Of a stretch of DNA of 59,450 nt, positions 7,220-59,450 are shown piece by piece. The stretch lies in contig CAZNYQ010000004.1 of NCBI GenBank assembly GCA_964577395.1, forward strand, positions 1 through 59,450, in the 5' to 3' direction. The notes under the pieces are model-generated. The model did not search any database, was not told the DNA's origin, and worked only from the letters and a program-made list of their open reading frames with translations. The position numbers were made by a program, and so were the translations under genes. This DNA comes from an uncultured Candidatus Saccharibacteria bacterium (GTDB lineage: Bacteria > Patescibacteriota > Minisyncoccia > JBAYJV01). Positions within the stretch are counted from its first letter, which is position 1. Each line of letters starts with the position of its first letter.

Positions 7220-7763
7220 TTTAAAAACAATTTTAATTTTTGGCTTAGGTAATCCAGGAGAAAAACATCACAATAGCCGTCATAATATAGGAAGAGAAAT
7301 AATTAATTTTTTGGTCAAAGAATTTAATACTTCTTTTGAACACAAAAAAAAGCTTAAAAGTTTCTTAGCCGAGGTAAACCAAAATTCTCACAAAATTCTT
7401 TTAGCAAAGACCGAAATGTTTATGAATGAAAGCGGCTATGCTGTCCGGCTTATTAAGGATTATTACAATATTTCTAATCAAAACATTTGGATTATTCAAG
7501 ATGATGTAGATATTGCTTTTGGAAATATCAAGACTTCTTTTGAAAGAAATGCAGCTGGCCATCACGGCATAGAATCAATTATTAAGCATTTAGGTAATAA
7601 TGAATTCCATCGTATCAGGATAGGAATTTGGAACCGACCTTTCTCAGAAAAGAAAAAAGAAATTACTCAAAGTTACGTTATGCAAAAATTTATCCCGGAA
7701 GAATTAGACAAAATATTAGATATAAAAAAAGAAGTAGCTCAAATAATTAAAGCTACTTTTTAA
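7212..7763 (+). CDS. pth: Peptidyl-tRNA hydrolase
   Basis: GLGNPG, RHNIG, FMNESG, DDVD, RIRIGI; start taken at ATG 7212. Confidence 0.94.
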   Translation: MNDLKTILIFGLGNPGEKHHNSRHNIGREIINFLVKEFNTSFEHKKKLKSFLAEVNQNSHKILLAKTEMFMNESGYAVRLIKDYYNISNQNIWIIQDDVDIAFGNIKTSFERNAAGHHGIESIIKHLGNNEFHRIRIGIWNRPFSEKKKEITQSYVMQKFIPEELDKILDIKKEVAQIIKATF

Positions 7764-7951: not shown

Positions 7952-9955
7952 ATGAAGACTATTTCACCGGTTTTAATATTAGCTAAGAAAGCAGAGATTT
8001 TTAATAAATCTCTTAATTTATCTTGGGATAAAACCAAGCTTGTTTTTAATAAACAAGAGATTATTCAATTAAGAAATTGGTTTGAGAAAAATATTTCTAA
8101 ACTAAAAAAAGCTTATCAAGTTAATATTTTTTGGAAAAACAATATCTTAATTTTAGAGAAAGATTTACATCTTCCTCCCCTAGAACTTTTAAAAAGATTA
8201 GAAGATTTTCATTATATTAAAAGTCGGCATATTAATTTGCCCGGTGAATATGCTCATAGGGGAGAAATTGTAGATATTTTTCCAATTAATCTATCTCAAC
8301 CTATCAGAATTGAATTTTTAGGGAATACTATTGAGAGAATATATTACTTAGAAAAAGAGGATCTTGATATTGAAACTTTTGATAAAAAATTAAAATTACC
8401 TAAGACAGCCTTAGATCATCTTACATCAGGAGACTATATTGTTCATCTTGATCACGGTATTGGTCGTTTTGCAGGCTTTTTAGTGCGCCAAAAAAAGAGA
8501 TATTATGAAATTCATTACAAAGGAGATGATGTTCTTTTGGTACCTGAAAATTTAAAAGAAAAACTATCTCCATATTTAGGATTTACCAAACCTTCTCTAA
8601 ATCGCTTAGGAAGTGGTAATTGGATAAAGACAAAGAAAAAAGTTAAAAAATATGCCTTAAAATTTGCCAAAGAACTTTTAGAAATTTATGCAAAAAGAGA
8701 AATTTCTCATCGTCTGCCCTACAATGAATTTCCTGATTTTGAAAGCAGGTTAGACGCCGCTTTTGAATATGAGTTAACTAAAGATCAAAAAAATGTTTGG
8801 AAAGAAATTAATAAAGATTTTGTTTCTTCTAAGCCAATGGATCGTCTCATATGCGGAGATGTTGGTTTTGGGAAAACAGAGATAGCCATGAGAACTGCTT
8901 TTAGAACAGCTTTAAATAATTATCAAACTGCTGTTATTTGCCCAACAACTATTTTGGCAGATCAGCATTTCTTGACTTTTTCAAGCAGATTAGAAAACTT
9001 TCCTGTTAAAACAGCGATTTTAACTCGTCTCGTTCCTAAGCATCGCCAAGGAAAAATTATCAAAGATTTAAAAAACGGCAAGATTGATATCTTAATTGGC
9101 ACGCATAGAATTTTATCCCAAGATGTCATATTTAAAAATTTAGGTCTTTTAATTATTGATGAAGAGCAAAGATTTGGAGTTAAGCAAAAAGAAAGACTCA
9201 AAAAAATGGAAGATAATATTAATATCTTAAGTCTTTCAGCTACTCCGATTCCTCGCACTCTTCACATGGCCCTCTCGCAATTAAAAGATATTAGTTTAAT
9301 TCAGACACCTCCTGTATATAAACTACCTATTAAAACTAAAATTGCCATTTTTAATGAAGCTCTTATCAAAAAAGCTATTCAGAAAGAAATTTCACGTCAA
9401 GGACAAGTATATTATTTACATAATCGCATAGGAACACTGATAGCTGTTAAACAAAAACTTCAAGAATTAATTCCTGAAGCCAGCTTCGCTGTTTTACATG
9501 GTAGAATGAGCGAAGCTAAGTTAATTAAAACAATTCATCAGTTTAGAGATAAAAAATATGATGTTTTAATTGCTACCTCAATTATTGAAAACGGACTTGA
9601 TTTAAAAAATGTTAATACTTTAATTATTGAAGATGCAACTAAATTAGGTTTATCACAAGCTCATCAAATACGAGGTAGGGTAGGTAGAGGCAATCTTCAG
9701 TCTTTCGCGTTTTTTCTTTATCCTCATCATAATTTAAACCATCAGACAAAAGAACGCTTAGTGGCTTTAGAAAAATTTTCATATTTAGGAGCAGGCTATC
9801 AAATAGCTAGTAAAGACTTAGAAATCAGAGGAGCTGGTAATCTTTTAGGAAGAGAACAATCAGGATCAATTAATAAGGTAGGCCTTAATCTATATTACCA
9901 AATATTAAATCAAGCCATTGAGTATCTCAAAAAGAATAAGAATTTGGATATTTAA
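7952..9955 (+). CDS. mfd: Transcription-repair coupling factor, shortened form
   Basis: GEYAHRGEIVDIFP, VHLDHGIGRF (CarD-like RID), GDVGFGKT, DEEQRFGV, SATPIPRTL, DLEIRGAGNLLG. Confidence 0.94.
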   Translation: MKTISPVLILAKKAEIFNKSLNLSWDKTKLVFNKQEIIQLRNWFEKNISKLKKAYQVNIFWKNNILILEKDLHLPPLELLKRLEDFHYIKSRHINLPGEYAHRGEIVDIFPINLSQPIRIEFLGNTIERIYYLEKEDLDIETFDKKLKLPKTALDHLTSGDYIVHLDHGIGRFAGFLVRQKKRYYEIHYKGDDVLLVPENLKEKLSPYLGFTKPSLNRLGSGNWIKTKKKVKKYALKFAKELLEIYAKREISHRLPYNEFPDFESRLDAAFEYELTKDQKNVWKEINKDFVSSKPMDRLICGDVGFGKTEIAMRTAFRTALNNYQTAVICPTTILADQHFLTFSSRLENFPVKTAILTRLVPKHRQGKIIKDLKNGKIDILIGTHRILSQDVIFKNLGLLIIDEEQRFGVKQKERLKKMEDNINILSLSATPIPRTLHMALSQLKDISLIQTPPVYKLPIKTKIAIFNEALIKKAIQKEISRQGQVYYLHNRIGTLIAVKQKLQELIPEASFAVLHGRMSEAKLIKTIHQFRDKKYDVLIATSIIENGLDLKNVNTLIIEDATKLGLSQAHQIRGRVGRGNLQSFAFFLYPHHNLNHQTKERLVALEKFSYLGAGYQIASKDLEIRGAGNLLGREQSGSINKVGLNLYYQILNQAIEYLKKNKNLDI

Positions 9956-30405: not shown

Positions 30406-31278
30406 ATGAAAAAAGATCTAAAATATTTAAATGCTTTTAATCAATCAGATTTTTTAGGTGCCCAAAGTTTTAAAAAAATTAAAAAATATTTTAAGTCTTA
30501 TGAAAAAGCGTGGTTTGCTAATTTAAATGAATTCAAAAAAATTAATTTTTCAGAGAATATTATTTCAGAAATCAAAAAAATTCGCCTTAAGGTAAATCCT
30601 GATAAAGAAATACAAAAAATAATAAAATATCATATCCAAATTCTTACTCCTCAAGATAAATTATATCCTCCTTTGCTTAAAAACATTGCCGTACCTCCCC
30701 AAATTCTTTATACTTTAGGCAATCAAAGTATTTTATCGCAACCTTGCTTAGCTGTGGTGGGAAGCCGTCATCATTCAATCTATGGGAAAAAAGTAGTTGA
30801 AAAAATTATTCCTGCATTAGTTGAGAAAAGAATAGCAATTGTTGCTGGACTAGCCCTAGGAATCGACAGTTTAGGACACCAGGCAACTCTACGAAAAAAT
30901 GGCAAAACAATTGCTGTTTTGGGATCAGGCTTAGCACGAATCTATCCAACTTCAAATCGTTTCTTAGCTAAGCAAATTCTTGAAAAAGATGGTTTATTAA
31001 TTTCAGAATTTCCTTTAACAAGCTCACCTTTAAAAAAACATTTTCCTATGAGAAATAGAATTATTAGTGGGTTATCCTTAGGAACAGTTGTTATAGAAGC
31101 AGCCGAAAGAAGTGGTAGTTTAATTACGGCTAACTTTGCTCTTGAACAAGGAAGAGATGTTTTTGCTGTTCCAGGAAACATTTTTTCACAATATTCGCAA
31201 GGAGCAAATATGCTTATTCAACAAGGGGCTAAATTAGTCAGCCAACCAAAGGATATTTTAGAAGAACTTGATATTTAA
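30406..31278 (+). CDS. dprA: DNA-processing protein DprA
   Basis: AVVGSR, GLALGID, VLGSG, FPMRNRIISGL, SGSLITA. Confidence 0.96.
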   Translation: MKKDLKYLNAFNQSDFLGAQSFKKIKKYFKSYEKAWFANLNEFKKINFSENIISEIKKIRLKVNPDKEIQKIIKYHIQILTPQDKLYPPLLKNIAVPPQILYTLGNQSILSQPCLAVVGSRHHSIYGKKVVEKIIPALVEKRIAIVAGLALGIDSLGHQATLRKNGKTIAVLGSGLARIYPTSNRFLAKQILEKDGLLISEFPLTSSPLKKHFPMRNRIISGLSLGTVVIEAAERSGSLITANFALEQGRDVFAVPGNIFSQYSQGANMLIQQGAKLVSQPKDILEELDI

Positions 31279-54843: not shown

Positions 54844-54873
54844 GAAGGAAGCAATAATCTTATTACTTCCTTC
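54844..54873 (-). terminator. Terminator of the 54885..55313 gene
   Basis: GAAGGAAG...CTTCCTTC hairpin followed by GCTGCTTTTTCT on the minus strand. Confidence 0.6.
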
Positions 54874-54884
54874 TTAATATTAAT

Positions 54885-55313
54885 TTATCCTAAAATATAG
54901 CGACTTATACGTGAAAGAGGTATAACATCCGTTTTCCTAACATATATCTTATTCTCTCCGCTGTTTTCAAGAGTAAGGTATTCTTCCTCCTCGGGATTCC
55001 AGCTCCATTTTTTTAGACAGTTCTTAGCAACTTCAGGTATTGTTATACTATCAAGCAATCCCACTTGGGAAATTATCGCCCCTCTGACAAGGCGACCATT
55101 ATCAAGGTACTTTATAACAGCGTTAAATCTGCGTTTGCTAGGACTCAATTTAACATAAGGTAAACTAACCAGTTCTTGTTTTAAACTTAGACAAATTTCT
55201 TTACCTGGTATTTGTTTCCCTTCAGCAATAAAGGCAATTTCACAATCATGTTTCAATAAATTATTCTCACTAATAGGTATACCGTGGACATCAACTCCTA
55301 TTAAGTTCTCCAT
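54885..55313 (-). CDS. Hypothetical protein, paralog of 56469..56906
   Basis: AAAGGAGG SD; collinear shared motifs HD.EI..IAEG, GKE, D.GRL, SQ.GLL, W.WN, YVR..DV.PLSR. Confidence 0.8.
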   Translation of the reverse strand: MENLIGVDVHGIPISENNLLKHDCEIAFIAEGKQIPGKEICLSLKQELVSLPYVKLSPSKRRFNAVIKYLDNGRLVRGAIISQVGLLDSITIPEVAKNCLKKWSWNPEEEEYLTLENSGENKIYVRKTDVIPLSRISRYILG

Positions 55314-55733
55314 GCCTTTCCTCCTTTAGTAAATTTTCATCTTTTATTCTATATTATTAGTTATTGTTTATCAAATACTATATAATCCACAACTAAAAAT
55401 TTACATGAGAAAAATTATTAATGAAAGCTGAAAAATAATTTTTTATGCTAAGAAAATGTCCAAGTTCTTGCTTAAACATTGATCTATATAACACAATTCA
55501 TTAACAGGCTAGGATATATACTTAACGCTAACTTGTTTTCTTCTTTAGTAAATTATAGAATATTCTTTCTTTTTAGGCTAATACATGATCTTTCATCTTT
55601 CCTCCTTTTAGTCTTAATATTTGATACTTCTTAAAATAAAGACTTAAATTAATTAAGAACTAATACTTTTTGACTAAGTCTTTATTCTAATCATTAGAGA
55701 ATAAAGCTGTTAAATCTTATTTCTTTCTTTAAT

Positions 55734-55765
55734 AAAAAAATAGCCCACAAGTTTATTGTGGGCTA
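55734..55765 (-). terminator. Terminator downstream of the ArsR-like gene
   Basis: TAGCCCACAA/TTGTGGGCTA with a T tract on the minus strand. Confidence 0.72.
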
Positions 55766-55851
55766 TGCTCTTATTCTTTTCTTATTGTTTGTAAGAACCG
55801 TTATTTTGAATATAGATGAAATAAGTATTACTCATACCCTAAGTTGTAAAT

Positions 55852-56175
55852 TTAGGTGCCCTTCAAGAATTCTATTATAGACATTTCAAGAATACTAGAA
55901 GTTTTGTACTGTGCCCGAAAAGTACTGGTTTCATGCGGGTCATCCTGGGGAGCTAAGTCCGTGATTCTACAAACTAAGCCAACCTCGCAAAGTATCTTCA
56001 AATGTTTAGATAGCTTCTCAACGTCCCAGCTATCAAGAAGCTTCAGAAGTTCGCTAAACGACATTGCTTTATCTTGGTTTTCAAGCATAACAGATAAAAT
56101 TTTTCTACGTTCATCGCTATCCAGAGCATTTGCTGCTATACGATAAAAACCACGATTTTTAGTTATCTCGTTCAT
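55852..56175 (-). CDS. ArsR-like winged-HTH transcriptional regulator
   Basis: NALDSDERRKIL..., SFSELL, LSKHLKILCEVGLV; module promoter and AAAGGAGG SD. Confidence 0.8.
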   Translation of the reverse strand: MNEITKNRGFYRIAANALDSDERRKILSVMLENQDKAMSFSELLKLLDSWDVEKLSKHLKILCEVGLVCRITDLAPQDDPHETSTFRAQYKTSSILEMSIIEFLKGT

Positions 56176-56179
56176 TTTT

Positions 56180-56300
56180 CCTCCTTTAGAATTATCTACA
56201 TACTATATTATCTTTCATATTTTGTCAAGTAAGTTTGACCCACCATAAAAGAGGTATAACAAAAACCTCATAAATAGAGGTTTAGGGAAAAGGATGTTAA
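56180..56300 (-). repeat. Terminator-promoter-RBS module, copy A
   Basis: Aligns by eye with 56914-57040 and 59234-59350; TTGACA (56228-23), 17 nt, TAGTAT (56205-56200). Confidence 0.85.
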
Positions 56301-56318
56301 CGGGAGCGGGTTCGAACC
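56292..56318 (-). other. Degenerate copy of the tRNA-His 3' end (att-like remnant)
   Basis: GGTTCGA-acccgc-TCCCGTTAACATCC versus tRNA GGTTCGA-g-TCCCGTTAGCACCC. Confidence 0.7.
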
Positions 56319-56424
56319 TGTTTGATGAGGCTAATTAGAAAAAATTTATTTAGAAATAAAGTGAGGTTCTTAGGTTTTAGGATTGTGAGTAGACGATGAG
56401 TTATTTATATTCTTCATAAATTAT

Positions 56425-56457
56425 AAAAGAAAAACCCGAGTGACTATCGTAACCCGG
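56425..56457 (-). terminator. Terminator of the 56469..56906 gene
   Basis: CCCGGG...CTCGGG followed by TTTTCTTTT on the minus strand. Confidence 0.65.
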
Positions 56458-56468
56458 GCAATAAACCA

Positions 56469-56906
56469 TTATTTAGGCGATTCGATGAGTAAACCTTGTA
56501 AGCGTGAAAGGGGCACAACATCTTCTCCCCTGACATATACGCAATCTCCTTCATTGTTTTTCAGGACAAGATAATCATCTTTACTAAAATTCCAGCCCCA
56601 GTGCCCTAGACATGTCTTCACGATTTCTGGCGCAACTAAATCCCCAAGAAGTCCCCTTTGGGAAACTCTTACATCGTAAAGTAAACGACCGTGATCAAAA
56701 GCTCCAACTACAACATTGAATTTACTACGACTTGAACTAAGCTCGGCAGGATAAAAGAACATTAACTCTTTTTCTCCCCTGAGACGAACTTCTTTACCCA
56801 ATGCGTTTCTTCCTTCAGCAATTAGCAAGATTTCGTAATCATGACTTAGTAGTTCTTCTTCTGGGACAACTTTTCCATATTCATCAATGCCCATTAATCC
56901 TTTCAT
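56469..56906 (-). CDS. Hypothetical protein, paralog of 54885..55313
   Basis: AAAGGAGGT SD; same collinear motifs as its paralog. Confidence 0.8.
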   Translation of the reverse strand: MKGLMGIDEYGKVVPEEELLSHDYEILLIAEGRNALGKEVRLRGEKELMFFYPAELSSSRSKFNVVVGAFDHGRLLYDVRVSQRGLLGDLVAPEIVKTCLGHWGWNFSKDDYLVLKNNEGDCVYVRGEDVVPLSRLQGLLIESPK

Positions 56907-56913
56907 CTTATCT

Positions 56914-57040
56914 ACCTCCTTTAGAATTACTTATATAATATATTATCTTCTATATTATGTCAAGCAAGTTCAAGCTAACACAAAAAGAGATATAACAAAA
57001 GCCTCATGAATAAAGGCTTAGAAAAAAGGGTGCTAACGGG
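56914..57040 (-). repeat. Terminator-promoter-RBS module, copy B (abuts tRNA-His 3' end)
   Basis: TTGACA (56963-58), 17 nt, TATTAT (56940-35); hairpin AAGCCT/AGGCTT. Confidence 0.85.
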
Positions 57041-57099
57041 ACTCGAACCCGTATCGCTAGGACCACAACCTAGTGCTCTGCCCTTGAGCTATAGCCACC
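57028..57099 (-). tRNA. tRNA-His (GTG) with G-1, CCA not encoded, acceptor 3' strand one C short
   Basis: GGTGGCTA TA GCTC..GAGC, CTAGG-TTGTGGT-CCTAG anticodon arm, ACGGG-TTCGAGT-CCCGT T arm, 3' TAGCACCC. Confidence 0.9.
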
Positions 57100-57251
57100 A
57101 TATTAAAAAATATACTTTATGTTCATTTTTTTAACCAATTACTTTCATAAATAAAAGTTACCAAAAAAACTAATTACTCATTGTAGGTTAAAGCTTGCTA
57201 TGGTAAAATATTATAATCCTAAATTATGAATAATGAAGGGGGGTGAATACT

Positions 57252-57833
57252 TTGAAAATCATCAAAAATAATATTAAACCATTAAGTTTTTTTCTTCTAG
57301 GTTTTTTTATCGCTACAGGGATAGCTCTATCTTTTGTTCCTAATTTAACCACAGCACAGCAGTCCGACTGTCAAATGACACAAGAAAATGTTGAAAATCT
57401 TTATCAAGCTATTTTCCATCGCGATATGGACACCGACGCTGAAGATTATATTGGACATCAATTTAGTTTTGTTGTCCAACAAATGCAACAATCTCAGGAA
57501 CAAACAAAATACAATGCTCTATATAAGTCTATGAAATCCTTAGAAGAAGCTCAAAGAGAACCTGGAGAAATTAGTGAAGAAAATCAACAGATATATAAAG
57601 ATTACATTGATCAATCAGCAGCTATTATTAATGAGTGGGCAAAGACTCTTCCGGAACAAGCATCTGAAGATAAAGTTATTGGCCCAGAACAAGCTCGAGA
57701 AGCAATTCAAAATGCTTATCAAAACATGAATCAGATAGCTCAGCAAGCTTGTGAACAGGGATTATTGCAAGCGCAAAGACAAATAGGCAAGCCTTCTGAC
57801 TTGCCAACTCCTTCTAATAAAAAAGGGCAATAA
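57252..57833 (+). CDS. Secreted Gln-rich hypothetical protein (ORF track start 57243)
   Basis: GGGGGGTGA SD before TTG 57252; signal peptide; LYQAIFHRDMD segment loosely DUF4214-like; terminator 57853-57886. Confidence 0.72.
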   Translation: MKIIKNNIKPLSFFLLGFFIATGIALSFVPNLTTAQQSDCQMTQENVENLYQAIFHRDMDTDAEDYIGHQFSFVVQQMQQSQEQTKYNALYKSMKSLEEAQREPGEISEENQQIYKDYIDQSAAIINEWAKTLPEQASEDKVIGPEQAREAIQNAYQNMNQIAQQACEQGLLQAQRQIGKPSDLPTPSNKKGQ

Positions 57834-58129
57834 AATTAAGCAACGATAAATTAAAAAAGGCCTATCTAAACAGATAGGACTTTTTTATTTCTTTTAATCG
57901 CCAATAAATATTGTAAGCTTTTTAACAGTTCTTTTAAAAACTCGTTAATAAAAGCAGGTTTTAAGAAAAGGGTTAGGAGCATAATATTATTATAACTTTA
58001 CTAGAGAAATATGATGAGTTTAGCAAGCTAATCAATGGTTTAAAGGAAATCAACGAATTGCAAAAAAGTTTTGCATAAAAATTTTTAGCATGGTTATTTC
58101 AATAAAATAAAATATCCCCAAATTAGGGG

Positions 58130-58157
58130 TTGACAGGAATTTATTATTTGTTAGAAT
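58130..58157 (+). promoter_or_regulatory. sigma70 promoter with extended -10
   Basis: TTGACA (58130-35), 16 nt, TG-T-TAGAAT (58149-57). Confidence 0.65.
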
Positions 58158-58163
58158 AGATAA

Positions 58164-58209
58164 TGTGATAGCACTCTGGGGTGTCTTCGGACAGCTCCAG
58201 ATTTTTTTT
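58164..58209 (+). ncRNA. Candidate ~45-nt RNA consisting mostly of a cUUCGg terminator hairpin
   Basis: TCTGGGGTGTC-TTCG-GACAGCTCCAGA then T8, starting ~18 nt after the -10 box. Confidence 0.45.
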
Positions 58210-58717
58210 ATTGAGAAATTTGTTTCTTCAGCTTACGAATATCTATATATTTAGCTCTTTCTAATAGTTCTTTAGCAATTCTTCCTCGTGTAGACATAAC
58301 AATAATTCTTTTTTTCTTATCCTTAATTCTATCTATTGGAGCAGAAAAATCACTATCGCCTGACATTAGTACAGCTGTAGTATACTTATTAGATAATTCA
58401 ACCATCTCAAGTGCTAATTCCATATCTAGGTTTCCCTTATATTTTTGTAAATGTTTAGATACACGAATTTTCTTAATTGCTTTTGTTCTTAAGATATAGC
58501 CATTGATATCAAGCATATCCAAAAATTTTCTTTCTCGCTTCCTGTCTTCATTGTAAGCAATATAAACGAAGCATTTAACATTCGTACCACATTCTTTTCT
58601 AAAATATTTAATTAATTTTTCATAAGAAATTCTCCAGCCTAAGTTTCTTTGAGAATAAAAAAGATTCGCCGCATCAATAAAAACATAAACCCTGCCTTTT
58701 ATAAGTTCTTTAAGCAT
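58208..58717 (-). CDS. NYN (LabA/DUF88, PIN-like) domain ribonuclease
   Basis: FIDAAN, KGNLDMELA, LMSGDSDF, catalytic Asp pattern intact. Confidence 0.92.
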   Translation of the reverse strand: MLKELIKGRVYVFIDAANLFYSQRNLGWRISYEKLIKYFRKECGTNVKCFVYIAYNEDRKRERKFLDMLDINGYILRTKAIKKIRVSKHLQKYKGNLDMELALEMVELSNKYTTAVLMSGDSDFSAPIDRIKDKKKRIIVMSTRGRIAKELLERAKYIDIRKLKKQISQ

Positions 58718-58890
58718 ATTAGCTTATTTTATCATAAAACCATCGTTGAAAAAGTATTTTAAACAATTCTATCATAGAACCCGCAAGTGCGAACGGCCCT
58801 ACTTGTCCATCTCTAACTTTAGCGAGAGAGAACCTGTTTGAACAGATTGATTATACAAAGCTTTTCTGAATACCCGTGGAGTTTTAGATT

Positions 58891-59109
58891 TTAAAAGTAA
58901 AATAATCTCAATAATACAAAAAAAGAGGATTGACTTAAATCAATCCTCTGATCTATTTCACCATAGATACAGCAAATAATTCCAGGAATAGCTAGAAAAG
59001 AAAACCAAGGATTACAAACTATCGAAAGACTAACAGCGACCGCTAGAAATAGGGCACCAAAATAGAGAATTAGACCCCTTGCTTCTTCGATAAAGTTTCG
59101 CGTGGTCAT
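58891..59109 (-). CDS. Small two-TM hypothetical protein
   Basis: 72 aa, hydrophobic; ATGA overlap with the upstream 40-aa ORF. Confidence 0.6.
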   Translation of the reverse strand: MTTRNFIEEARGLILYFGALFLAVAVSLSIVCNPWFSFLAIPGIICCIYGEIDQRIDLSQSSFFVLLRLFYF

Positions 59110-59228
59110 CCCTTTCTATCTCCCTTATCTACTTTATTTTCTTCTTCGGGCAGTCCTCCTATAGCAACACAAAAAAATCCAATGACCAAAAAACCAATCC
59201 ATATACATAGCAATGTGTATTCGCTCAT
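59106..59228 (-). CDS. 40-aa single-TM peptide (not in ORF track)
   Basis: MSEYTLLCIWIGFLVIGFFCVAIGGLPEEENKVDKGDRKG; AAAGGGGGT SD; module promoter; TGA overlaps the next ATG. Confidence 0.62.
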   Translation of the reverse strand: MSEYTLLCIWIGFLVIGFFCVAIGGLPEEENKVDKGDRKG

Positions 59229-59233
59229 ATCTA

Positions 59234-59350
59234 CCCCCTTTGCCTAGAACTATCAATATCATATATCATTTTCTATACTCTATCAAGCAGTTTCGAGCTA
59301 CCACGAAAGAGGTATAACAAAAACCTCGTAAATAGAGGTTTAGAAAAAAG
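59234..59350 (-). repeat. Terminator-promoter-RBS module, copy C
   Basis: GAAAGAGGTATAACAAAAACCTCGTAAATAGAGGTTTAGAAAAAAG nearly identical to copy A; TTGATA (59286-81), 17 nt, TATGAT (59263-58). Confidence 0.85.
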
Positions 59351-59450
59351 TGTCGTTTATGCGACAATGCTAGGACTTTTCTATGTATCTAATTAGTATT
59401 TTGAAGACTTCTTTCTTTCCATTCATTTAATGTTTCGTATTTCCGTCCGC

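Follow-up and report, generated by a model that had tools for sequence, protein, structure and literature searches.

How does a row of unrelated genes beside a tRNA gene come to be preceded, time after time, by one and the same set of expression signals? This question is raised by an array of small genes at the end of a 59,450-nt stretch of DNA from an uncultured Candidatus Saccharibacteria bacterium (contig CAZNYQ010000004.1; the whole stretch is hereafter called the window), in which the array genes and the repeated blocks between them lie on the minus strand unless noted otherwise. A preliminary description of this DNA had proposed that genes were captured repeatedly at tRNA-His together with a ready-made expression platform. 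By comparing the window with related lineages we find that the interval from tRNA-His to the bPH_2 and RmuC genes is a hypervariable array of one- or two-gene cassettes, nearly all co-oriented with the tRNA. The boundary between cassettes is composite, and consists of a remnant, a T-rich linker, an intrinsic-terminator hairpin, a box of ~30 nt, a sigma-70-type promoter and a short leader with a strong Shine-Dalgarno sequence (SD).

The repeated block and its expression signals

Repeat detection in the window found the block family in three copies, A (56187-56292), B (56922-57027) and C (59245-59350), which are 81.1% (A/B, 127 nt), 78.3% (A/C, 106 nt) and 77.7% (B/C, 130 nt) identical by BLASTN. 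A 22-mer common to all copies, GAGGYTTTTGTTATAYCTCTTT, has three exact occurrences in the 59 kb, compared to 0.01 expected by chance. The earlier estimate of ~120 nt for the length of the block falls short of the full extent of copy A, whose homology to relatives spans ~260 nt and includes a left arm of ~100 nt ahead of a tRNA-like core. Further decayed boundaries are also present (58760-58915, before the gene of an NYN nuclease, and ~57930-57980), as is a promoter-only relic of the block before a 142-aa paralogue of one of the array proteins (Table 1).

Direct reading together with a promoter and terminator scan confirmed the order of elements that had been described. On the minus strand, a T-rich linker is followed by a 7-bp hairpin with a T tract, the GTTATAYCTCTTT box, the promoter TTGAYA-17-TAnnAT, a short leader, and AAGGRGG located 6-9 nt ahead of the start codon (59228 for C, 56906 for B and 56175 for A). 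The -35 and -10 boxes match the consensus at 10-11 of 12 positions in all three window copies. The compensatory change reported for the stem was likewise recovered, with AAACCTC/GAGGTTT in A and C and AAGCCTT/GAGGCTT in B. As judged by protein annotation, the genes behind the three copies are indeed mutually unrelated: C precedes genes for membrane peptides of 40 and 72 aa, B a 145-aa ORFan, and A a 107-aa HTH_20/ArsR-like protein. The description was also right about what stands ahead of the hairpins. Copy B follows a tRNA-His recognised by ARAGORN, copy A follows a degenerate tRNA-His 3' end (56321-56292) that scores above shuffled sequences (z = 4.8), and copy C follows at most a trace of the tRNA (z = 2.9), which comprises only GTCCTAGC.

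To place these blocks in a wider context, we relied on pattern scans of genome and metagenome collections and on exact-protein look-ups, which yielded four further lineages; pattern matches without an nhmmer signal (6 of 11 in metagenomes, 3 of 4 in genomes) were regarded as chance matches. Sequences are cited below by L numbers, L005-L008 being contigs of the same population as the window that extend beyond the window end. Across lineages the remnant takes three forms, namely the tRNA itself, a type I remnant (the left arm of ~100 nt plus a tRNA-His-3'-like core) and a type II element of 31 nt. The type I core, AGGTTCGAACCCGyTCCCGTTGGTCACCC, resembles the tRNA-His 3' end even more closely in L020 (z = 8.7 against shuffles) than in window copy A, and type I remnants number five in L020, at least three in L022 and one each in L019 and in the window. 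A variant of type I carries a 34-nt insert at the centre of its GGTTC|GAACC palindrome (L022:6165-6250, 8783-8870 and 9818-9905, and window 58775-58860) and contains a candidate stem, GGTyCTCC/GGAyGGAC. A conserved RNA structure for this insert-bearing form was considered and rejected (RNAalifold -6.6 kcal/mol, zero covariation). The type II element, AAAAGTCCTAGCmTTGTCGCATAAmCsACmC, of which the trace ahead of copy C forms a part, is found at window copy C and at L022:640-670, and its tRNA ancestry is weak. Two L001 copies have an open reverse-strand reading frame across this unit, but stops interrupt it in L018, and the type I unit is therefore treated as non-coding. In Rfam, the tRNAs gave the only matches; the module, the left arm and the remnants matched no family.

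With regard to the expression signals, the hairpin stem varies among ACCTC/GAGGT, GCCC/GGGC and GCCAC/GTGGC, and in an alignment of 14 copies from four lineages 94.9% of the cells pair, three of the seven pairs change on both sides and there are 14 double-change cells. Neither 500 shuffles nor any slid register reached the observed value, and such covariation is what a working terminator should show. Judged by its sequence, the hairpin with its U tract would be classed as an intrinsic terminator. The promoter hexamers, the 17-nt spacer and the SD are conserved in most aligned copies of the four lineages. We infer that the module may serve as an insulating expression unit: the hairpin would stop transcription coming from the tRNA or from the preceding cassette, the promoter and SD would start the next gene, and any gene placed behind the module would consequently be expressed independently.

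The ~30-nt box upstream of the -35 box (consensus GTTATAcCyCTTTTGTGGTrGsTCGAAC) and the promoter spacer are conserved beyond generic promoter needs, and winged-helix genes recur in the arrays. One might therefore argue that a single regulator, e.g. the winged-helix protein of the array, binds box and promoter throughout, and that selection rather than descent keeps the copies alike. The likeness, however, also takes in the tRNA remnant, the linker, the hairpin loop and, in relatives, the 100-nt left arm, it ends at the start codon, and the near-identical repeats of 86-175 nt described below are actual duplications. We therefore consider a shared regulon promoter extremely improbable as the explanation; regulation could be an added layer, with no bearing on origin. 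The possibility that the box is a collapsed second tRNA-His was also tried and rejected, as local alignment gave z ~0.3, no better than shuffles or tRNA-Gln.

The same site in relatives and exchange of cassettes

The array occupies the same syntenic frame in the window lineage, L020, L026, L028 and L022: an ECF (extracytoplasmic function) sigma factor gene, an EF-Tu-domain-2-like gene, tRNA-His, the array, bPH_2 and RmuC. In L020, which is part of a 768-kb contig, the ECF sigma gene, ADK, an 86-aa EF-Tu-domain-2-like gene and tRNA-His are followed by nine module matches in 8 kb. L022, a metagenome-assembled genome, has 13 module matches among 19 co-oriented genes in 13.9 kb, and its array ends at bPH_2 like that of the window. 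L026 and L028 share the left frame, and L028 also the right one (bPH_2, RmuC, DUF4012). A tRNA-His heads the array in the window lineage, L020, L026 and L028.

The gene content of this frame is almost wholly different between the lineages. Only four families (the 145-aa ORFan, NYN, a winged-helix-like N-terminal domain and a 187-aa protein) are shared among arrays of 11, 14 and 19 genes, and all window cassette proteins except the 187-aa one form singleton clusters in a collection of 15 billion proteins. A fixed gene order inherited from one old tandem duplication, which the preliminary description had named as the outcome that would speak against capture, is thus not what we see. Different genes at the same spot in relatives point to a gene-swapping hot spot. 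Where domains can be recognised in the cassettes they are defence- or toxin-antitoxin-like: a Fic protein (PADLOC PDC-S04/SoFic, L020:10976-11908), a HicB-like antitoxin (L022:3930-4187) and the NYN nuclease of the window (HEC-09).

Two cassettes indicate how recently such swapping has taken place. Between L007 and L020, the 187-aa gene and the hairpin and promoter ahead of it share 92.5% of their nucleotides (synonymous divergence, dS, 0.18), whereas the core genes flanking the array are 54-69% identical between the same two contigs, five of them giving dS values of at least 1.5 or saturated. This gene is the first after the tRNA in L007 and L026 and the third in L020, where two extra cassettes stand between tRNA-His and the 187-aa gene. 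Similarly, L028 and L022 share an ORFan cassette at 84% identity (dS 0.34), whereas the neighbouring bPH_2 is saturated. These values, set against the saturated core genes, show that cassettes move between lineages. The GC content of the cassettes is 35-41%, compared to 31-32% for the host. Of the proposed gene capture at tRNA-His, what stands is accordingly an anchored stack of unrelated genes, predicted to be expressed individually, with a tRNA-3'-like remnant, terminator, promoter and ribosome-binding site, together with recent exchange.

The boundaries themselves also bear marks of exchange and of local events. In a tree of the right arms (hairpin, box and promoter) the L022 copies cluster together, a pattern that may be a sign of concerted evolution or local amplification, whereas the copies of the window, L020 and L019 are interspersed: L019_792 is paired with L020_9908, and window copy B has its best match in L020_9074. 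The boundaries of L028 are mosaics of different L022 boundaries.

These data also bear on a purely local history, according to which an old tRNA-His with its intergenic segment was tandemly duplicated in each lineage and the intervening genes diverged or were replaced, with nothing mobile involved. The clustering of the L022 copies, the paralogous ORFans inside the arrays, the presence of recent local duplications and the same arrangement in four sequencing runs and several assemblies are as this would have it. Nevertheless, it would have to accommodate an almost complete difference in gene content at a syntenic site, a cassette GC content 4-10 points above that of the host core and the intermixing of module copies from different genomes, and with two cassettes at dS 0.18 and 0.34 against a saturated core it is already strained. 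We regard it as very unlikely.

Growth of the array

The tRNA-His in the window is itself a product of duplication. An intact tRNA-His with its whole acceptor stem lies 3.7 kb past the window end (L007:6027-6098, Rfam 68.2 bits), whereas the window tRNA scores 52.6 bits and has TAGCACCC in place of the TAGCCACCC of the intact copy. The two form an 86-nt repeat, 97.7% identical, that comprises the whole tRNA and 12 nt upstream, from which it follows that the "anchor" tRNA of the window is a displaced duplicate in the first stages of decay. The two tRNAs enclose the 187-aa gene, a 152-aa membrane protein gene, copy C with its peptides, the NYN nuclease gene and a 196-aa gene on the reverse strand. 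The window tRNA-His together with boundary B is 88.5% identical to the genuine tRNA-His and module of L020.

A second young duplication is a direct repeat of 152 nt, 99% identical, at L007:6753-6904 and 7404-7555, the second copy of which reaches into the window (59352-59450). It contains the C-terminal coding end and the tail of the 152-aa membrane protein gene, and the 187-aa gene has one copy in place of its original 3' end. Within the 152-aa gene there is a further, internal duplication, with the motif KRGRWIKSL occurring twice. In L022 a third repeat, of ~175 nt and ~98% identity, extends from the terminator to the -10 box between ORFan paralogues that are only 49% identical. As a separate observation, the type II element is missing from L005, an older assembly, at each of the two copies of the 152-nt repeat (L005:6958/6959 and 7573/7574, compared to L007:6867-6902 and 7518-7573), and at copy C the 5' arm of the terminator hairpin is missing as well; either strain variation or an artefact of assembly would explain the difference. 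The window version of the type II sites is supported by contigs of four Logan runs.

The three youngest duplications thus differ in content and in limits, one being a whole tRNA, one a gene tail and one a terminator-to--10 stretch, and these differing extents fit homology-driven or long-target-duplication insertion somewhat better than one fixed attachment (att) site. Accordingly, our preferred, though tentative, explanation, with a little less than an even chance of being correct, is that the array grew by accretion of this kind. DNA of related arrays would be taken up; a DprA (DNA_processg_A) gene at 30406-31278 in the window is consistent with natural competence in the lineage. The conserved tRNA or module sequences would then serve for recombination of the incoming DNA, whether this took the form of Campbell-type integration or of "insertion with long target duplication", a process that was reportedly described by Nobusato and colleagues in 2000. 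Each insertion would duplicate its target, so that module copies would multiply and unrelated genes would inherit the same expression platform, and later gene conversion and decay would blur the copies. No dedicated recombinase would be needed. Such growth is in keeping with long, near-identical flanking repeats without mobility genes, with the mosaic make-up of the L028 boundaries and with a homology between copies that runs through the SD up to the start codon.

The searches for recombinases and mobile DNA are also relevant here. No Phage_integrase or other recombinase Pfam match is on record for the 59-kb window and 7.5 kb beyond it (~67 kb in all) or for the 17-21-kb loci of four relatives, which extends the earlier statement that the window holds no integrase. 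The only mobility-like trace in the arrays examined is a 91-aa open reading frame (ORF) on the minus strand of L020 (12712-12987), with HTH_28 and IS481 transposase leucine zipper matches at E = 0.001-0.014, below the Pfam cut-offs. The patterns of the module, the type I core and the left arm had zero matches in viral contigs, a 261-nt BLASTN query against phages came back empty, and so did the 187-aa protein against viral contigs. The expectation that the module would occur with other genes or on mobile DNA is therefore borne out in its first part, given the many other genes that it precedes in L020 and L022, but not in its second.

It should be underlined that several observations weigh against recombinase-free accretion. 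Remnants resembling the T arm and acceptor of a tRNA, in an array anchored on a tRNA 3' end, are the classical signature of integrase att sites. Lineages with 65-70% identity in their core genes keep the left arm and the tRNA-like core at 80-90%, a degree of conservation that suggests a protein-binding constraint like that of an attP arm. The L022 boundaries combine remnant types and hairpin types independently of each other, and the two parts are separated at the end of the tRNA-like core. Furthermore, module copies within one genome are 70-85% identical and hence a poor substrate for RecA. Contigs assembled from four public runs agree on a single fixed arrangement at uniform depth, indicating that the array is stable within the population.

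The first three of these points are what one would expect from tandem accretion by a site-specific recombinase acting in trans, which is quite conceivable although we think it doubtful. Here, small circular cassettes would carry an attP-like site consisting of the left arm, the core and the right arm. Integration at the tRNA-His 3' end would push older cassettes outward, the internal boundaries would be regenerated attP sites and the tRNA-proximal junction attL, and the integrase would come from another part of the genome or from a helper element. The length of the boundaries, ~250-330 nt, resembles that of a lambda-type attP. In L020 the genuine tRNA-His is directly followed by hairpin, box and promoter, the left arm and core being added only at internal boundaries, and the type I core of this lineage matches the tRNA-His 3' end with z = 8.7. 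The exchanged 187-aa cassette has its left breakpoint 13 nt past the tRNA end, and successive integrations that leave partial tRNAs behind are known for tycheposons (10.1101/2020.12.28.424599). On the other hand, the recombinase searches and those of viral contigs and phages were empty as stated above, the core does not bound the most recent duplications, and the homology continues through the SD as far as the start codon. The duplication of a full-length tRNA plus 12 nt upstream is a further difficulty, as crossover in the T loop or anticodon loop would not yield such a copy.

Even if homology-driven or long-target-duplication insertion accounts for the recent growth, the original seeding may still have been due to tRNA-targeting integrative elements, and a mixed history of recombinase-free and integrase routes is likely. 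A bolder possibility, which we consider somewhat unlikely, is that Saccharibacteria and their relatives possess a dedicated gene-capture platform, analogous to integrons but unrelated to them. The tRNA would then be the entry site, and the composite boundary, with its tRNA-3' mimic, terminator, promoter and SD, would act both as recombination substrate and as insulated expression unit. Recombination would be carried out by the competence/RecA machinery or by a recombinase whose gene lies elsewhere, and the tRNA-His array would be one of several platforms per genome. If so, such platforms would be the main route by which these reduced genomes sample ORFan, defence and toxin-antitoxin genes.

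Array features and known systems

The features of the array that lie within the window are listed in Table 1.

Table 1. Features of the tRNA-His array in the window, in the direction of transcription of most of its genes.
Feature	Position	Strand	Details
3' end of 152-aa membrane-protein cassette gene	59394..59450	-	Gene start beyond window; L007:7026-7484 maps onto window end
Boundary C	59223..59393	-	Type II element 59380-59350; hairpin 59341-59321; box GTTATACCTCTTT; promoter 59286-59258 (TTGATA 59286-59281, TATGAT 59263-59258); SD 59240-59234
Cassette, 40-aa and 72-aa membrane peptides	58891..59228	-	No Pfam match; terminator 58924-58949
Boundary E	58760..58915	-	Decayed type I left arm (..TTTGTATAATCAATCT..CAAACAGGTTC), 34-nt insert variant; aligned with L022 and L020 boundaries; NYN-gene promoter TTCGCA-16-TAGAAT, 58793-58766 (promoter scan); weak nhmmer match at L007:8051-8119
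NYN-domain nuclease cassette	58208..58717	-	Pfam NYN 1.2e-27; PADLOC HEC-09 and NYN
Boundary D	57930..58081	-	~120-nt element 57977-58081 (78-83% identity to L028:8337-8441, L028:9795-9909 and L022:3732-3857), then remnant-like CTCCTAACCC, T-rich linker, decayed hairpin
196-aa secreted or membrane ORFan	57243..57833	+	Sole array gene on opposite strand
tRNA-His copy 2, displaced duplicate	57027..57099	-	ARAGORN; 1-nt deletion in 3' acceptor strand (TAGCACCC)
Boundary B	56902..57026	-	Hairpin 57019-56999; box; promoter 56963-56935 (TTGACA 56963-56958, TATTAT 56940-56935); SD 56921-56915
145-aa ORFan cassette	56469..56906	-	Terminator 56458-56435; array-specific protein family; paralogue at 54885-55313 (42% identity); homologues in arrays of L020, L022 and L028
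Boundary A	56168..56431	-	Left arm (CTCACAATCCTAAAAC..); core 56321-56292; hairpin 56283-56263; box; promoter 56228-56200 (TTGACA 56228-56223, TAGTAT 56205-56200); SD 56186-56180; 76% identity to L020:8948-9170 over 223 nt
107-aa winged-helix (HTH_20/ArsR-like) cassette	55852..56175	-	Pfam HTH_20 9e-7; terminator 55766-55740
Promoter-only relic and 142-aa paralogue of 145-aa ORFan	54885..55374	-	TTGATA-17-TAGAAT 55374-55346; terminator 54873-54844

Three further observations concern single sites. The ~120-nt element of boundary D, which is found twice in L028 and once in L022, abuts a boundary in every copy in three lineages, and in L022 it lies just upstream of the HicB-like antitoxin gene. 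Its reverse strand reads ..HNIIITLLEKYDEFSKLIkGLKEIn.LQKSFg, with an intact 41-aa ORF in one copy only. We rejected the idea that it is the tail of a gene split by integration, as a profile search of 1.84 billion proteins returned one 41-aa ORF and Pfam and PHROGs were empty. At 55590-55713 on the minus strand, a promoter-like TTAACA-18-TAGAAT is followed by a strong SD and a mini-ORF of seven codons; over the SD and start region it shares 90% identity with the HTH gene, and the site is probably the stump of a lost cassette. Finally, the sequence TGTCAAyCCCTAATTTGGGGATATTTTATTTT is conserved between the window (58104-58135, minus strand) and L020 (12014-12046), located 3' of the NYN gene in the former and 3' of an NYN 3' relic after the Fic gene in the latter.

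Bacteria of the candidate phyla radiation (CPR, Patescibacteria) have tiny genomes with few recognised mobile elements and very many ORFans, which raises the question of how they gain and test new genes. The present array is a defined locus at which single, putatively self-expressed genes are swapped between lineages, with sequence-defined boundaries and two dated exchange events. Moreover, the module is tractable: it lends itself to genome-wide search, to terminator and promoter assays and to a cassette capture test in the few transformable Saccharibacteria. If it is also a recombination substrate, it would represent a new design of gene capture and provide a ready-made insulated expression cassette for engineering these organisms.

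Among known systems, the tycheposons of Prochlorococcus are islands that have grown at tRNA genes through successive integrations (Hackl et al., bioRxiv 10.1101/2020.12.28.424599). Like the array, they form a variable island by a tRNA in a streamlined genome, have partial tRNA copies between units and scattered decayed remnants, and newer units apparently push older ones outward. In contrast, tycheposons are kilobases long and carry their own tyrosine recombinase and replication genes, whereas the units seen here are ORFans in ones and twos with no recombinase nearby; the tycheposon junction is an att site of ~40 nt, whereas here it is a repeat of 120-330 nt with terminator, promoter and SD. 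In the assembled contigs of four Logan runs no excised form of the array units was seen, and the only two candidate excision or circle joints, which were of low depth with sides of 20-21 nt, were not credited.

With integrons and CALINs (clusters of attC sites lacking integron-integrases) the array shares a one-way stack of small, mostly single-gene cassettes without known function, repeated boundary elements and a strong turnover between relatives. It differs from integrons in that the window, the 7.5 kb beyond and the relatives' loci contain no IntI, and in that the anchor is a tRNA gene and not attI. Integron cassettes depend on a common promoter (Pc), whereas here each cassette has its own promoter and SD with a terminator ahead. 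The attC sites at the 3' ends of integron cassettes are imperfect palindromes of 57-141 nt with R''/L''-L'/R' boxes. The boundary hairpin of the array instead looks like a terminator with a U tract: the only conserved hairpin is this one of 7 bp, and the core has a 5-bp inverted repeat, ACCAA/TTGGT, in an element of ~31 nt.

Insertions with long target duplication leave repeats of 46-423 bp, lack mobility genes and are found mostly in naturally competent species (Furuta et al. 2010, PMC2853133). Here too genes lie between long direct repeats (86, 152 and ~175 nt), which may be duplicated targets, and the loci examined have no mobility gene. These insertions have, however, been described for single restriction-modification units at scattered sites and not for an iterated array at one tRNA, and the target that they duplicate gives no expression platform. 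In full-text searches of the literature, no account of arrays like this one in Saccharibacteria or Patescibacteria came to light. While its particular build was thus not found described, the array belongs to a kind of island that is already known, the variable island anchored at a tRNA, and consists here of single, putatively self-expressing cassettes whose boundaries combine a terminator with a promoter.

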